DNA of 64,000 bases, from positions 416,691 through 480,690 of the forward strand of contig CAWEPK010000012.1 of assembly GCA_963810935.1 (NCBI GenBank), in the 5' to 3' direction. Below, piece by piece: positions 2,434-14,184 of this stretch. The notes beneath the pieces are model-generated. The model ran no database searches, was not told the DNA's origin, and was given only the letters and a program-made list of their open reading frames with translations. This DNA comes from an uncultured delta proteobacterium (GTDB taxonomy: Bacteria > Desulfobacterota > Syntrophorhabdia > Syntrophorhabdales > WCHB1-27). Position 1 is the first letter of the stretch; every line of letters starts with the position of its first letter. The translations under genes and the position numbers were made by a program.

Positions 2434-2790
2434 ATATATGAGTATAAGCCCATACGCCAGCCATTCTCAATAGATTGAGTATCGGGGGGCCGGGATCTTT
2501 TCGCGGCCTTCGCGCCGTTTTCTCGGCGCGCCTCCTCGACGTACTTCAACTGTACAGTCTCGTCGGGCGCCTTCGAAAAGCAACGCGAATTCCACGAAAA
2601 CCTCCCGGCCCCGACCCTGTAAGACCAAAATGACAATCCCTGACCGGAATCACCATTCTGCACCTAAAAAGGGGCCTGTTTCAATAATATTTTAAAATTC
2701 AATCGACAAGAATGTTGGCCTCGGATAGAATTCAAGAGGCCCTTTTCTTGGCTATTTTCGGTGTCTTTTTAATTGCACAGGGGAGCAATT

Positions 2791-3357
2791 ATGGCAGCAA
2801 AACGAATATTGACTGAGTCTGAAAAAACTAGGTTAGAATCATCCACGAAGAGATGGCTGGCGGAGTGCGAACGTTGGATGAGGCACTTCAAGGCGCTGCG
2901 GCCCGACCCAATGGAACAAGGGTTTCCGTCCAATGTCGACAGTTTCTTAATCAGTGCTACCTATTTTATTGTCGCTGCGGGTTGCGTTTATTTACACTGT
3001 AAAAGTCTGCTTGAAGCCAAAACGGGTTCAAAACAAACGGCCGATAAGTGGCTTGCGGATCGTCTCAAAGAACGGCCTGTATTACAGGCCTTAGTCGATC
3101 GCCGCAACTGGATCAACCATGGAGCACTGTACAGAAACCCCAATTATACGCTAACGTTTGTCCAGGTGGAAGGCGTTGACAGAACGACGGCTGATCTTGT
3201 TTATGAGGCTGCCAAGAACAAAGGCTCCGTGATTTGGAACGCTGGCAATACCTTTTGCTGGATCGCAGAAGATGAGACTATTGAACATAGCGTTACTTAC
3301 TGGCAGGAGAAAGTAGTATCTGAACTATCAGAGATGGTTAGGGATATTGAGCAATAA
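2791..3357 (+). CDS. Hypothetical protein with HEPN-like R-X4-H motif
   Basis: GGGGAG RBS before ATG 2791; AT-richer than host genes; RNWINH motif. Confidence 0.55.
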   Translation: MAAKRILTESEKTRLESSTKRWLAECERWMRHFKALRPDPMEQGFPSNVDSFLISATYFIVAAGCVYLHCKSLLEAKTGSKQTADKWLADRLKERPVLQALVDRRNWINHGALYRNPNYTLTFVQVEGVDRTTADLVYEAAKNKGSVIWNAGNTFCWIAEDETIEHSVTYWQEKVVSELSEMVRDIEQ

Positions 3358-3449: not shown

Positions 3450-3475
3450 GAATATTCGGTAGTGTCTCAGTTTGA
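3450..3475 (+). repeat. Left target-site duplication (GAATATTC, 3450-3457) plus left IR
   Basis: Read directly from the sequence. Confidence 0.95.
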
Positions 3476-3517
3476 CGGATTGTTTTGTTGTTGATGAGTG
3501 AAGAAGGCTACGGCCTA

Positions 3518-3526
3518 TGTTATAAT
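3518..3526 (+). promoter_or_regulatory. Extended -10 promoter (TGtTATAAT), probably giving a leaderless mRNA
   Basis: TATAAT at 3521-3526 with 7 nt between it and ATG 3534; no RBS. Confidence 0.6.
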
Positions 3527-3533
3527 AAATATT

Positions 3534-3764
3534 ATGCCTAAAGGACCAAGGGGGCAGAAGAGACCCGCCGATGTCATAGGCAATGCCATAGTGGTTGCCA
3601 AGATTGCTACCGGCGAGATTACTGAAGAAGCCAACGGCAAAGAGTATGCCCGCGAGGGTGGGCGGAAGGGCGGAGCACTCAGGGCTAAGAAACTATCTTC
3701 TGCCAGACGAAAAGAAATTGCTCAAAAAGCCGCCCAGGCCCGCTGGGGCAAGAAAGAAAATTAG
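3534..3764 (+). CDS. Small basic IS-associated protein (histone H1-like / KGG-type tail)
   Basis: MPKGPRGQKRPADVIGNAI..IATGE and GRKGG..RAKKLS..RRKEIA.KAA.ARW, a pattern I recognise from genes beside this transposase type. Confidence 0.8.
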   Translation: MPKGPRGQKRPADVIGNAIVVAKIATGEITEEANGKEYAREGGRKGGALRAKKLSSARRKEIAQKAAQARWGKKEN

Positions 3765-3909
3765 TCCCATTTCCCCGCATAAATAAACGATTTTTGCTTT
3801 CTGGAAAATTCTTAGGAAAAAAAGGACTTGCTTTTTACACTGCTTCTCATGCAGAATATATACAGTTCTGCTGTAGGGAGATAGAAAAGGTAAGGGAGGA
3901 GGTGGTTGA

Positions 3910-4515
3910 TTGCTAAACGAAGGTGACTTTACAAGGGTTATTGGGAAGTACTTCGAAGCGATTCAGGAGTGCATCGAGGCAGGGTTCAACCGCTGGTTTG
4001 CGGTACCCGCAGAGTTTAGGATCGCGGCGTCTCCACGTACAAGGGCAAATTTTATTCACGATTTCATTCGCGATGAAGCTCTGAGGCGTTTTTTGCATGT
4101 TCCAGAGATAGAGTTATTGGAAGTCCGGGGGCTGTTTTTGGTCAAGTTCGGGGAAGATGTATTATTGAGGTTCAAGAAGTTTGATAGGTATTTCCGTCCG
4201 CAAAATATCCCTACTGGTCAGACAAAATTGTTCTCACGGCAGGGAGTACAGGAATCCCTTTTTGGAGTTCCTTTTGCTACGAAGGTTATTGCCGGGTATC
4301 AAACGGATAAGGCACACGCTGAAATCCAATGGACGGGCATAACATGCCCCGAAGGAAAGCATCTACATTGGTACATTAACTTCGAAAAACCTTCCACCCA
4401 AGTTCTTCCTTTCCAGACTTATCAAGAAACAACACAAGAGTCTGGCCCCGTCGCAGAACCGAGGCCGAAGGAGAATTTGAAAAACAATGAGAAGAGAGGA
4501 GACAAAGAAATTTAA
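3910..4515 (+). CDS. Hypothetical protein, candidate toxin/effector
   Basis: Strong GGAGG RBS before TTG; overlaps the start of the XRE-peptidase gene; motifs RTRANFIHD, LRFKKFD, IAGY. Confidence 0.7.
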   Translation: MLNEGDFTRVIGKYFEAIQECIEAGFNRWFAVPAEFRIAASPRTRANFIHDFIRDEALRRFLHVPEIELLEVRGLFLVKFGEDVLLRFKKFDRYFRPQNIPTGQTKLFSRQGVQESLFGVPFATKVIAGYQTDKAHAEIQWTGITCPEGKHLHWYINFEKPSTQVLPFQTYQETTQESGPVAEPRPKENLKNNEKRGDKEI

Positions 4516-5563
4516 TCCAGACATGCTGATCATGGCGCGCAAATCAAGGGGGTTAACACAAAGCGATTTAGCAACTGCTCTTGCAATGACTTCATCTCAC
4601 CTATCTAAAGTTGAGGGTGGGATGACACCTTTTCCAGAATCGAAACTGGACGAATTATCGAATGCGCTCAAGTATCAGGAAGATTTCTTTTACAGGGGGG
4701 AAAGGTTCTTGGGGATAGGTCCGGCGTTTGTGTACCATAGAATGCGGCAAAGTGTTTCAAGCAAGCTAATAGAGAAGATCGAAGCACAGGTGAACGTCTA
4801 CCGTATACACATTGAGAGGCTTCTCCGTTCCGTAGAAATCGCGGAATGCAAAATCCCTTCTTACGATTTGGATGAACTGGGGAACAATGCGACACCGGAA
4901 GACGTTGCACGTAACATTCGTGCCTCTTGGTTTATTCCGAGTGGTCCGATAATGGACCTTGCCCAAGTCATAGAAGCTGCGGGCGGAATTGTCATTCCAT
5001 ATGACTTCGGTACGATGCAGATTGACGGTGTGAGCCAACGTGTTCGGCCACTTCCGCCTTTGTTCTTCATAAACAAGAATATTCCTGGCGATAGGTGGCG
5101 GTTTTCGCTGGCCCACGAACTCGGCCACATAATTCTTCACGATAGTCCACGTCACGATATGGAAAAAGAGGCTAACCGCTTTGCGGGTGAGTTTTTAATG
5201 CCCGCATGTGACATCGGACCGTCCGTGTGTTCACTCGGCTTCGGTAAGTTATTCGATCTCAAAATGTATTGGAAATGTTCGATGCAAGCGATCATCAAAC
5301 GGGCCAAAGACATGCAAACGATATCGGAACGGACTGCGTACTATCTTTTCGCCCAACTATCTAAGGCAGGGTATAGGACCAAAGAGCCGGGCGAATTTCC
5401 ACGAGAGCAACCTACGTTATTGTCAAAGATTATTGAGGTATATCTGAACAAGCTTGGATATACAGCAGAGGAAATGTGTAACCTGTTGGCGATTTACTCC
5501 GGGGATTTTAATACGCTTTATGCCGATACCTCAGAGAAGCGTCATTTGAGGCTGGCAGACTAA
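4487..5563 (+). CDS. XRE-family HTH + ImmA/IrrE (Peptidase_M78) zinc metallopeptidase
   Basis: N-terminal ARKSRGLTQSDLA...LSKVEGG HTH; RFSLAHELGH (HExxH) and EKEANRFAGEFLMP. Confidence 0.93.
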   Translation: MRREETKKFNPDMLIMARKSRGLTQSDLATALAMTSSHLSKVEGGMTPFPESKLDELSNALKYQEDFFYRGERFLGIGPAFVYHRMRQSVSSKLIEKIEAQVNVYRIHIERLLRSVEIAECKIPSYDLDELGNNATPEDVARNIRASWFIPSGPIMDLAQVIEAAGGIVIPYDFGTMQIDGVSQRVRPLPPLFFINKNIPGDRWRFSLAHELGHIILHDSPRHDMEKEANRFAGEFLMPACDIGPSVCSLGFGKLFDLKMYWKCSMQAIIKRAKDMQTISERTAYYLFAQLSKAGYRTKEPGEFPREQPTLLSKIIEVYLNKLGYTAEEMCNLLAIYSGDFNTLYADTSEKRHLRLAD

Positions 5564-5633
5564 GGGGGCACTTATGTAAAAAAATAGGGGTAAACGACCC
5601 GGTACCCAACCATCGCGTTTACCCCTGACCAAT

Positions 5634-5707
5634 ACCCCTGTAGCTCAAACGGACAGAGCGGCTCCCTCGAAAGACGCTGGCTCCGGGTTCGAGCCCCGGC
5701 AGGGGTA
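5634..5707 (+). tRNA. Non-canonical tRNA-like RNA (nominal anticodon CGA; possible pseudo-tRNA)
   Basis: Acceptor ACCCCTG/CAGGGGT, D-arm GCTC/GAGC, T-arm CCGGG-TTCGAGC-CCCGG; anticodon stem has 2 mismatches; 5-nt variable loop; no encoded CCA. Confidence 0.75.
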
Positions 5708-5762
5708 CTCCTATATTCTATACATATTTCTCGTGAAAAAAAAGTTTTTCTTAACCTGAAAA

Positions 5763-5797
5763 TTATGCTTGACACATAAGCATAAATTTCATATAAT
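5763..5797 (+). promoter_or_regulatory. Consensus sigma70 promoter for the transposase with an overlapping inverted-repeat operator
   Basis: TTGACA (5769-5774)-N17-TATAAT (5792-5797); TTATGCTT-N7-AAGCATAA (5763-5785); ATG at 5804 without RBS. Confidence 0.85.
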
Positions 5798-5803
5798 AAG
5801 AAC

Positions 5804-6640
5804 ATGCACAAGCTGCCCATATCAAAGCGAGTCCAAATCCTTCAGATGCTTTGTGAAGGCGCTTCCATGCGGTCTATCTCCAGAGTCGCGGACGTATCCA
5901 TAAACACGGTAACCAAGCTGCTTGTGGATGCCGGTAAAGCCTGCTCGGACTATCAGGACAAGGCCCTCCGTAACCTGCCCTGCAAGCGAATCCAGGCCGA
6001 CGAAATTTGGTCGTTCTGCTATGCCAAGGAAAAGAACGTCCCCGACGACAAAAAGGGCTGGTTCGGTTATGGCGGTGTCTGGACCTGGACGGCGATAGAT
6101 GCTGACAGCAAACTTATCGTTTCATGGCTGGTAGCCGACCGGGGGGCAAGGGCAGCGATGGAGTTCATAAGCGATCTGGCCGAGAGGCTTCAGAACAAGA
6201 TGCAGCTTACCACGGACGGCCACAAGGTCTATTTGAACGCGGTAGAAAGAACCTTCGGCGGCGAGATAGATTATGCGATGCTCCAGAAAATCTATGGGAC
6301 GGAACCGGAAGGCGAAAAGAGATACAGCCCTGCGAAGTGCTTAGGGGCAGACAAGTCGATCATCTGTGGACGGCCCGACGAAGAGCACATATCAACAAGC
6401 TACGTCGAGCGGCATAATCTCACCATGAGGATGAACATGAGTCGGTTTACTCGCCTGACGAACGGATTTTCTAAGAAGGTCGAGAATCATTGTCATGCCC
6501 TCGCCCTCTGCTTCATGGCTTACAACTTTGTGCGGATTCACAAGACCTTGAGAGTAACCCCCGCGATGGCCGCCGGAGTGACGGACAGACTGTGGACGAT
6601 GGAGGATATAGTAAATTTGATCGATGAGAATTCAAACTGA
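5804..6640 (+). CDS. IS1-family DDE transposase
   Basis: N-terminal HTH ([12 protein letters not shown]); QADEIW, TTDG and [13 protein letters not shown] catalytic motifs; RVTPAMAAG tail. Confidence 0.95.
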
Positions 6641-6657
6641 GACACTACCGAATATTC
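6632..6657 (+). repeat. Right IR plus right target-site duplication (GAATATTC, 6650-6657)
   Basis: Read directly from the sequence. Confidence 0.95.
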
Positions 6658-11768: not shown

Positions 11769-12017
11769 ATGAAGACTGCCATATCCCTGCCCGATGATAT
11801 ATTTAAAGAGGTTGACGAGTACGGTAAGGAGTACCGGTGCTCGCGGAGCCAGGTGTTTGTTATGGCCGTGCGGGAGTTCCTTGACCGTAGGAAATCGAAG
11901 AAGCTCCTTGAGGCTCTTAACAAGGCGTATGGGGAGGCTGAGACATCCGAAGAAAGGGCCTTACGGCGGCAGGCAAAAGCCTATCGTGCGAGGAAAGCCC
12001 GGACCGAAGCCCCTTGA
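11769..12017 (+). CDS. CopG/RHH antitoxin (MazE-like)
   Basis: MKTAISLPDDIF...SRSQVF ribbon-helix-helix; overlaps the toxin gene. Confidence 0.85.
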   Translation: MKTAISLPDDIFKEVDEYGKEYRCSRSQVFVMAVREFLDRRKSKKLLEALNKAYGEAETSEERALRRQAKAYRARKARTEAP

Positions 12018-12379
12018 GCATCCGGCAGGGGGACATATTCTGGGTCGATCTCGGCCCGCCGGAAGGGTCCGGGCCGGGGTTCAGGCATCCCTGCGTCGTT
12101 ATACAGAACAACGTCTTTAACACGAGCCGGCTGAGTACGGTAGTGGTCTGCGCCCTTACATCGAATGTCGAAAGGGCGAAGGCGCCGGGAAACGTCCTGC
12201 TCAAGGAAGGCGAAGGCGGCCTGCCGAAAGATAGCGTCGCCAACGTCACTCAGATCTTAACCGTCGATAAATCGGACCTTGTCGAGAAAATAGGCTCCCT
12301 GCGCCCCGCCAGGATCAACCGGATCATCGACGGCGTCGGGCTTCTCCTCACACCGTTAGAGCTGCCGGTGGATTTATAG
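12014..12379 (+). CDS. mazF: PemK/MazF family toxin
   Basis: IRQGDIFWVDL...RHPCVVIQNN..N...LTSN...DSVANVTQI.TVDK. Confidence 0.93.
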   Translation: MSIRQGDIFWVDLGPPEGSGPGFRHPCVVIQNNVFNTSRLSTVVVCALTSNVERAKAPGNVLLKEGEGGLPKDSVANVTQILTVDKSDLVEKIGSLRPARINRIIDGVGLLLTPLELPVDL

Positions 12380-13053: not shown

Positions 13054-13449
13054 TTAAGTCTCAATCACCTTCAAACCCAGGAACCTGACCATCGGGTCGA
13101 AGTCGCGGTCATCGTGCAGTAACGGCAAATCGTGGTGGATGCAGAAAGTGCCGATCATGACATCGATTGTCTTCCGCACGGTCACACCCTTCTTGCGAAG
13201 GGTCCTGTAATTAATTGCAGCTTCCAAAGCCAGGGCGCGGCCGCCCATTGTCAGGAACGGCAGGCGATGAAGAAGGTCTCTTGCTGTCCTGAAGTCCTTA
13301 TCGTCCTGAAACCCCTGGAGCACCTCGGTCAGGACCAACTCGTTTATGACGAAAGGGACATTTCCGGCTGAGGCGTCGAGCCAGTCCGTACGGGACGTCT
13401 TTTTGCCGTTGAAATAGTCGATCCAGACCGGAGAATCGACGAAGATCAT
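13054..13449 (-). CDS. vapC: VapC PIN-domain toxin
   Basis: IFVDSPVWIDYF, EVLQG, KTIDVMI, LLHDDRDFD. Confidence 0.92.
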   Translation of the reverse strand: MIFVDSPVWIDYFNGKKTSRTDWLDASAGNVPFVINELVLTEVLQGFQDDKDFRTARDLLHRLPFLTMGGRALALEAAINYRTLRKKGVTVRKTIDVMIGTFCIHHDLPLLHDDRDFDPMVRFLGLKVIET

Positions 13450-13640
13450 TTATCCAGCCGCATTTCGTGCAGGTTGCCGGTCCATTTGAGCTTTCCCCGG
13501 AAAGCCCTCAGCCTTTCCTGGTCCTTAACCTGAACAAGCAGTCTCAAGCCCTCTTCTATGGTTTCCTTCTTTGTCTTCTTTCCCGACGCCTTAAGGGCGG
13601 ACGCCATCAAAACGTCATCTATTATCACGTTGGTTCTCAC
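13446..13640 (-). CDS. vapB: VapB antitoxin
   Basis: GTG start after GGAGG; RTNVIIDD.LM..AL..SG.KTKKE...LRAFRGKLKW. Confidence 0.88.
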   Translation of the reverse strand: MRTNVIIDDVLMASALKASGKKTKKETIEEGLRLLVQVKDQERLRAFRGKLKWTGNLHEMRLDK

Positions 13641-13827
13641 CTGTCGCCTCCCATGTGTATCACTATCATCTATTATACACATTATTGCAATTGTTTGAAA
13701 CACGGCGGCCCCTGCCGTCGGGTTTGTGGGCACCTGCCTCGCCCGCGCCGTGAAGGTGCGCCTGCCGTAGACATGCCCTATATTAGACCGTACAGAGCAA
13801 ACGTCTACGAACGTACGGAGGCGCTGT

Positions 13828-14184
13828 ATGAAAGGCATTGAGGTAAAGAACTTTGATGTGCCGGACGAGACGAGGAGATTCGATAAGGGCAAGGTCGAGT
13901 TAATCAATGTCAACGGGCGTACGGTCGGGCGGGCTACTTTAGAGCCGGGATGGAAATGGTCGGAATCGGTGAAGCCCCTGGCGAAAACAAAAAGCTGCGA
14001 GGCCCCCCATTTCCAATATCATCTTTAGGGCATCCTTCATGTCAAAACGGACGACGGCACGGAAAAGGACGTGAGAGCCGGAGAGGTTTCGATGCTTGGT
14101 CCCGGTCATGACGCATGGGTGGTCGGCAATCAACCGGTAATACTGATCGATTTTCAGGGCATGGTAGATTATGCCAGGCAGTAA
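13828..14184 (+). pseudogene. Cupin-domain protein interrupted by an in-frame TAG (14026-14028)
   Basis: PGWKWSESVKP..CEAPH before the TAG; same frame continues GILHV...PGHDAWVVG...DFQG to TAA 14184. Confidence 0.8.

Follow-up and report, generated by a model that had tools for sequence, protein, structure and literature searches.

A probable RosmerTA-type gene pair with an Rv2016-like predicted toxin as cargo of an IS1-like element

A reading frame of 201 aa, which matches no Pfam or NCBIfam family and matches PADLOC only at chance level, overlaps the start of a gene for a metallopeptidase with an XRE-type helix-turn-helix domain in a 64,000-nt stretch of DNA from an uncultured delta proteobacterium (the window; genes and motifs lie on its plus strand unless stated otherwise). 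What does this reading frame encode, and does the tRNA-like RNA downstream of the pair belong to the same system? The sequence-only reading of the locus suggested a RosmerTA-like module, in which the reading frame is a toxin, possibly a nuclease, and the tRNA mimic could complete a three-part system. Herein, we conclude that the module, which is the cargo of an IS1-like element, is very probably a RosmerTA-type pair whose toxin belongs to the Rv2016-like family. Going further, we see about even chances that the predicted toxin would bind the sliding clamp DnaN and would be removed via ClpXP, in the manner of the RipAB pair but with a toxin of a different family, a proposal drawn from sequence comparison.

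The gene pair and its IS1-like carrier

The predicted toxin gene (3910-4515, TTG start) is preceded by a purine-rich ribosome-binding stretch at 3891-3903 and shares 29 nt, according to the list of open reading frames, with the gene for the 358-aa predicted antitoxin (4487-5563). The latter protein contains an HTH_3 domain at residues 16-67 (E 3e-6) and a Peptidase_M78 domain of the ImmA/IrrE type at residues 170-273 (E 8e-14), with the motif HELGH at residues 210-214 (5114-5128). Thus, the overlap of a 201-aa reading frame with the gene for an XRE and HExxH peptidase, as first described, has been confirmed. The peptidase is RmrA-like, matching 14 PADLOC RmrA models (best E 5.8e-57), and the 201-aa reading frame is considered a real gene because 1,900 related clusters and a confident structure model support it. 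The palindrome GCAGAA-N9-TTCTGC, noticed earlier upstream of the pair and possibly an operator, is present as an exact match at 3851-3871, but it is not conserved and may be a chance match: a similar match with at most one mismatch arises in 20/100 shuffles of the window, and the left arm is absent in the closest relative (locus L002). The palindrome was therefore rejected as a conserved operator.

The gene pair is cargo of a 3.2-kb IS1-like element (3458-6649); the sequence-only reading recognized the overlapping genes but missed this carrier and also, as described below, a motif in the toxin that resembles a clamp-binding motif and an SspB-like tail of the peptidase. The element is bounded by perfect 18-bp terminal inverted repeats (3458-3475 on the plus strand and 6632-6649 on the minus strand) and by the two copies of an 8-bp target-site duplication (GAATATTC, itself palindromic; 3450-3457 and 6650-6657), consistent with the ends expected of the IS1 family. 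It encloses a small basic ORF at its left end (3498-3764; 88 aa from GTG, with a probable start at the ATG at 3535), the gene pair, the tRNA-like RNA and an IS1-like DDE transposase encoded in a single ORF (5804-6640, 278 aa), just before which a perfect sigma-70 consensus, TTGACA-17-TATAAT (5769-5797), is overlapped by a 14-bp inverted repeat. The best NCBIfam family of the transposase was NF033558 (E 6e-18), although the score of 65.5 bits falls short of the curated cut-off of 100, and the match to Pfam DDE_Tnp_IS1 was above its cut-off. The element is single-copy, with a GC content of 48% compared with 61% in the flanks. In 8 loci, a homologue of the small basic ORF, which itself weakly matches phrog_2384, precedes the toxin gene, and the left IS end was also found upstream of this gene in L002, L006, L072, L093, L101 and others. 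Both IS ends were found in three toxin-bearing loci (L006, L080 and L101). Since a match resembling the inverted repeat (at most 4 mismatches) was found in only 11 of the 55 toxin-bearing loci, one of these matches being weak, the IS is one of several vehicles of the pair, the others including plasmids and temperate phages.

Several further observations were made around the element. Inverted-repeat pairs related to its ends are present elsewhere in the host genome (G000:C7 395579-396704, C12 272380-273218 and C13 5858); the approximately 1.1 kb and 0.8 kb between them contain no match to a transposase, and they are likely non-autonomous cargo derivatives. A transposase of 46% identity is encoded at C7 398024-398830 of the same genome. 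Just outside the left IS end, a 194-aa ORF (2773-3357, plus strand, GC 47%) without a family match carries an R-x4-H motif (RNWINH, residues 111-116), which we take to recall HEPN RNases, and this ORF is possibly another toxin or defence gene. Two more gene pairs in the window, at 11769-12379 (plus strand) and 13054-13913 (minus strand), have the look of type II toxin-antitoxin pairs, MazEF/PemK-like and VapBC-like, respectively, as judged by eye from their translations.

The toxin family, its partner and its published relatives

The toxin family comprises 1,900 clusters at 50% identity, as collected with a five-sequence profile at E<=1e-3. Among 150 diverse members, no meaningful match to Pfam, NCBIfam or PADLOC was found, and at E<=0.05 none of the 150 matched either a PADLOC RmrT model or NF052238, the RipA/spr1630 model of 246 positions. 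The sole match of the window toxin in the family libraries beyond this was phrog_15813, itself without a name; a PDB sequence search returned nothing credible, and the nearest clusters in the ESM Atlas were nameless, although DUF5986 appeared on 12-14% of one of these clusters, which is a lead only. To examine the neighbourhood, 101 loci were inspected (9 from GTDB and 92 from DNA patterns), of which 55 carried the toxin and 46 were dropped as false positives of the patterns; a few of the loci are near-duplicates, and the DNA pattern favours one subfamily. The XRE-peptidase gene was next after the toxin gene in all 47 loci with at least 300 nt of downstream DNA, and HExxH was kept in all 34 distinct complete partner peptidases. 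The converse linkage is looser, as a family member was upstream in four of eight loci chosen by their peptidase and absent in the other four, in keeping with the promiscuity of Rosmer antitoxins (PMC10440598).

Searches for the toxin gene returned no match in 21 genomes of the host family or 400 of the phylum, and tblastn with the window toxin returned none among plasmids and phages. The same search with a relative (P0066) retrieved four plasmid records and one phage record. In IMG/VR, no toxin relative was confirmed, and the single pattern match failed the family profile. The toxin-peptidase pair was found in three temperate phages, namely Acinetobacter phage OQ471969 (L158), prophiGD44-1 (L161) and Gordonia phage Howe (L162), near repressor or integrase genes. 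The genes upstream of the peptidases in two Firmicute phages (L163 and L164) did not align to the toxin family (0.3% probability) and did not belong to the spr1630 family either; one of them, in a Lacticaseibacillus phage (L163 1873-2529, before a similar peptidase), contains the clamp-motif-like string E-I-S-L-F.

A link to a published toxin was provided by a mycobacterial prophage member of the family, which retrieved a cluster from M. tuberculosis at 70% identity. This cluster includes the 191-aa protein O53462, which we take to be Rv2016, in agreement with its length. In a full-length profile comparison (HHalign), the family and the M. tuberculosis protein (P0265) were found to be homologous with 98.4% probability and an E-value of 9.7e-15 over 149 columns, although the relationship is remote, at approximately 19% identity in the aligned columns. 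In the TASmania study, Rv2016, of 191 aa, was robustly toxic in M. smegmatis and its rescue by Rv2017 was limited or weak (PMC6504116), and the available part of this report gave no mechanism for Rv2016. The two pairs have in common a homologous toxin, the toxin-first order and an HTH partner; they differ in that the basic motif reads R-I-K-R in Rv2016 and R-F-K-K in the window toxin, and in that the present pair is IS cargo accompanied by a tRNA-like RNA.

These results are consistent with a RosmerTA-type system. The XRE-HTH and ImmA/M78 architecture with HExxH and a tightly linked partner in a two-gene operon (the 29-nt overlap and the 47/47 loci) were both observed, as were the pairing of the antitoxin with a small unrelated gene and the carriage by phages and plasmids that are shared with RmrT/RmrA pairs. 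A match to a catalogued RmrT profile was not observed; RmrT toxins are heterogeneous, so such a match is not strictly required. The window toxin differs from RmrT-D5 of Kita, which is membrane-depolarising (PMC10440598), since a soluble alpha/beta protein is predicted here. With the constant presence of the peptidase after the reading frame and a homologue, identified as Rv2016, that has been published as toxic, the proposed toxin/antitoxin nature of the module is supported. Among Rosmer-type pairs, RipAB of S. pneumoniae (Spr1630-Spr1629) resembles the present pair, and the RipB (spr1629) model matches the window peptidase with an E-value of 3.5e-25, below its cut-off. However, the family has no match to the RipA model, and therefore the window toxin would resemble RipA in its action but not in its family.

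Fold, clamp-binding-like loop and peptidase tail

In the predicted structure of the toxin, an alpha/beta core extends from residue 1 to residue 160 at a pLDDT of 93-98, interrupted by a low-confidence segment at residues 101-120 and followed by a disordered tail. The suggested check by structure prediction and Foldseek thus yielded a confident core model but no Foldseek match at E<=1e-3 in PDB or BFVD, where the top viral row was a PD-(D/E)XK nuclease (prob 0.77). The best rows in VIA-align were the restriction enzymes NaeI, EcoRV, SwaI, SfiI and BglI over residues 2-163 (Z 5.9-6.2, rmsd 3.8-4.1 A, approximately 130 aligned residues), tied with human Rep15, and VIA-align itself notes that such a match may reflect no more than a commonly seen arrangement. 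Conservation is highest at R43, R45, D51, R87, F88, K89, K90, T102, Q104, Q114, G129, Y130 and W154. The nearly invariant basic motif R87-F-K-K90 on strand 3 (4168-4179) probably forms, together with R43, R45, D51, T102, Q104 and Y130, an active or nucleic-acid-binding site. Among 14 positions checked, D51 was the only conserved acid (95%), and an acidic metal-binding triad with (D/E)-x-K was not found, strand 3 reading R-F-K-K instead. If strand 3 corresponds to the (D/E)-x-K strand, as topology rather than a residue-level alignment suggests, an arginine would replace the metal ligand. A metal-dependent nuclease of the classical kind is thus improbable, given the lack of a conserved acidic triad and the arginine predicted at the ligand position. 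Accordingly, the description of the toxin as possibly a nuclease gains weak support from the restriction-endonuclease-like fold at Z ~6, the triad not being conserved, and the toxin may be a nucleic-acid-binding protein or a metal-independent enzyme.

Within the low-confidence segment, a loop (pLDDT 62-71) carries the pentapeptide Q114-E-S-L-F118 (4249-4263), which resembles the bacterial clamp-binding consensus QL(S/D)LF (PMC9690074). Of 150 diverse members, 95% keep Q114 and 73% keep L117, and the residue that follows this leucine is proline in 58% and phenylalanine in 5%. The broad pattern Q-x-x-[LFIM]-[FPL] was found in the loop of 90 of the 150 members (expected, 2.4 from other windows and 14.2 from shuffled loops) and a strict clamp pattern in 52 (expected, 0.2 and 1.3, respectively). 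The form Q-x-x-L-F is present in only 14 of the 150, most reading Q-x-x-L-P-G, and the L-P form presumably resembles the motif of Hda. These patterns and those for the peptidase tail were written after the alignments had been viewed, and thus their enrichment demonstrates conservation, not function; the loop could instead serve substrate binding or dimerisation. The same data bear on the alternative that the restriction-enzyme-like core of the toxin acts directly on DNA or on some other target, with no role for the clamp, and that the Q-x-x-L-P loop is a structural element. The restriction enzymes at the top of VIA-align, the viral PD-(D/E)XK row and the commonest ending of the loop motif, L-P-G and not L-F, argue for this explanation; however, the acidic triad of such nucleases is not conserved and the glutamine of the motif is among the most conserved positions despite the flexible, length-variable loop, and we therefore consider it unlikely.

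The peptidase ends in H-L-R-L-A-D (5543-5560), which we take to resemble the ClpX-binding tail of SspB. A C-terminus of the L-R-x-V type was observed with a broad pattern in 27 of 34 peptidases compared with 97 of 2,257 long host reading frames, and with a strict pattern in 19 of 34 compared with 17 of 2,257. In S. pneumoniae, RipA, the partner of an XRE-ImmA antitoxin, acts on the pocket of DnaN, to which suppressors map (bioRxiv 2025.09.02.673660; PMC12795458), and the action of the RipB antitoxin depends on ClpX (bioRxiv 2025.09.02.673660). The available text of the RipA paper contains neither "motif" nor "adaptor", and thus a clamp motif or an adaptor role is not mentioned there (PMC12795458). 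We infer that an adaptor role of the antitoxin would explain the ClpX requirement of RipB and perhaps also the weak rescue of Rv2016. In Caulobacter, the SocB toxin uses a clamp-binding motif to attach to the clamp (PMC9690074). The window toxin is similar to SocB in carrying the clamp-motif-like QESLF. The antitoxin SocA is a ClpXP adaptor and, to our knowledge, has no HTH or peptidase domain, unlike the window antitoxin.

Herein, we propose a mechanism for the pair that would combine these features. First, the Q114-ESLF loop would dock in the hydrophobic pocket of DnaN (the sliding clamp), which would bring the basic, restriction-enzyme-like core (R43, R45, D51, R87, K89 and K90) to the DNA at the fork; the core would block the replication fork and may nick the DNA, and replication would stall. 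Second, the XRE-peptidase would repress the operon through its HTH domain and would neutralise the toxin by cleavage, by delivery to ClpXP through the SspB-like tail, or by both. Third, the loss of the element, or a stress such as phage infection or DNA damage, would free the toxin, and therefore the pair would stabilise the element or abort infection. The tRNA-like RNA would be an optional passenger, not part of the core.

The tRNA-like RNA and the meaning of the locus

A 12-bp hairpin (5586-5626) lies between the stop codon of the peptidase gene and the tRNA-like gene (5634-5708), which ARAGORN calls Ser-CGA and which combines an Arg-type body with a CUCGAAA loop. The predicted RNA folds as a 7/5 cloverleaf whose variable loop is short and whose anticodon stem has two adjacent mismatches, and its Rfam score is 49.3 bits compared with 64.4 bits for the tRNA-Val of the window. 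tRNA-Ser requires a long variable arm, and a functional tRNA-Ser(CGA) is not consistent with the short variable loop and the two stem mismatches. Among the host tRNAs, Arg(TCT) is the nearest, with a modest lead (score 52 vs 49). From established tRNA identity rules, charging of this RNA as Ser or Arg is unlikely. The irregular tRNAs of Mukai et al. (PMC5389517) are similar in being stem-damaged tRNA-like genes beside toxin-antitoxin modules and transposon genes; allo-tRNAs, in contrast, have an 8/4 or 9/3 acceptor branch, whereas the window RNA is of the 7/5 Arg-type with a short variable loop. As for the host genome, three tRNA-Sec calls (C4, C6 and C11) and neither tRNA-Ser(GCT) nor tRNA-Arg(TCG) were observed among its 41 ARAGORN calls, and the IS-borne RNA is its only call with a CGA anticodon; since this genome is 93% complete and 7% contaminated, the odd tRNA set may be a matter of assembly.

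The association of such RNAs with the pair was examined in the 36 loci in which the peptidase is complete and DNA downstream of it is available, counting same-strand ARAGORN calls up to 260 nt after the peptidase. A tRNA-like gene was found in two of the 36 at the default score compared with 0/634 control windows, and in four at a relaxed score compared with 1/619, the two added calls being one duplicated tRNA-Gly with the look of an integration site. None was found in the 10 phage or plasmid loci, and the exact pattern of the window RNA was found neither in viral contigs nor in 400 genomes of the phylum. In L002 (5675-5790), the hairpin is kept with one compensatory pair, and the tRNA-like gene retains its 5' two-thirds, including the CUCGAAA loop, and then breaks off in the T-arm; no transposase follows. 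In L107 (4430-4503, oriented), an Arg-type tRNA-like gene with a CUCGUAA loop lies, after a strong hairpin, downstream of a distantly related toxin-peptidase pair, so that an Arg-type body with a CUCGxAA loop is common to two unrelated loci. In L004 (5674-5761), from an Acidobacteriaceae genome, a Sec-like tRNA with a UAU anticodon starts 10 nt after the peptidase stop and matches allo-tRNA(UAU), which has been reported near toxin-antitoxin systems (PMC5389517); indeed, irregular tRNAs beside such systems have already been described (PMC5389517, PMC7609411). The association is above chance but sporadic, and therefore the RNA accompanies the pair as an accessory without defining it, and the notion of a tRNA mimic as the obligatory third part of the system was rejected.

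These loci would fit a three-part system in which the reading frame is a metal-independent RNase, acting on tRNA, while the tRNA-like RNA serves as its decoy, replaces cleaved tRNA as a resistant substitute or works as an RNA antitoxin. The enrichment over the control windows, the loop common to unrelated loci and the UAU RNA of L004 are in its favour, as are the basic residues of the conserved surface (R43, R45, R87, K89 and K90) with one conserved acid only and the presence of tRNA splicing endonuclease chains among the weak fold rows (Z ~4). However, the RNA is missing in at least 32 of the 36 loci and in all 10 phage or plasmid loci, is truncated in the closest relative and is of differing types, two of the four relaxed calls being one duplicated tRNA-Gly, and restriction enzymes, which act on DNA, occupy the top fold rows; thus, this explanation is improbable. 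That the reading frame is no toxin in this host, the pair being an ImmA/IrrE-like stress-sensing switch on the transposase with the reading frame as an accessory DNA-binding factor, is very unlikely. In its favour, ImmA/IrrE peptidases do regulate mobile elements (PMC10440598) and several IS copies have the pair ahead of their transposase gene; against it, most loci carry the pair without this IS, the transposase has its own consensus promoter and the homologue is toxic as published (PMC6504116).

We thus return to the RosmerTA-type pair with a clamp-directed toxin. In its boldest and decidedly doubtful form, the family of approximately 1,900 clusters, including Rv2016, would consist of clamp-riding, metal-independent nucleases on a rewired restriction-enzyme fold with arginine for a metal ligand, the partner would unite in a single chain the roles of repressor, protease and SspB-like adaptor to ClpX, and mobile copies would repeatedly recruit damaged tRNA genes as an RNA control layer. 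The XRE-HTH/peptidase architecture of such toxin-antitoxin systems is already known (Millman et al., bioRxiv 2022.05.11.491447), and the 236 "D25" hits listed by NetFlax may already predict the pairing. A clamp motif, tail, fold or mechanism for this toxin family was not found in print in the literature searched, which covered subscription journals to a small extent, and SocB and RipA were the only clamp-targeting toxins of toxin-antitoxin systems found there.

Several implications arise from the present study. First, a very large toxin family, which includes a published toxin, carries no name in Pfam, NCBIfam or PADLOC. Second, the locus shows a complete toxin-antitoxin cassette moved by IS1-like elements, and the three temperate phage loci are ready candidates for prophage-borne defence. 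Third, the clamp motif in the toxin and the ClpX-binding-like tail in the antitoxin are two five-residue, directly testable predictions; if the tail works, it would account for the ClpX requirement of an XRE-peptidase antitoxin, a question that the RipAB paper leaves open. Antibacterial drugs are being aimed at the clamp pocket (PMC9690074), and for a large toxin family the clamp reading would provide a mechanism open to testing.
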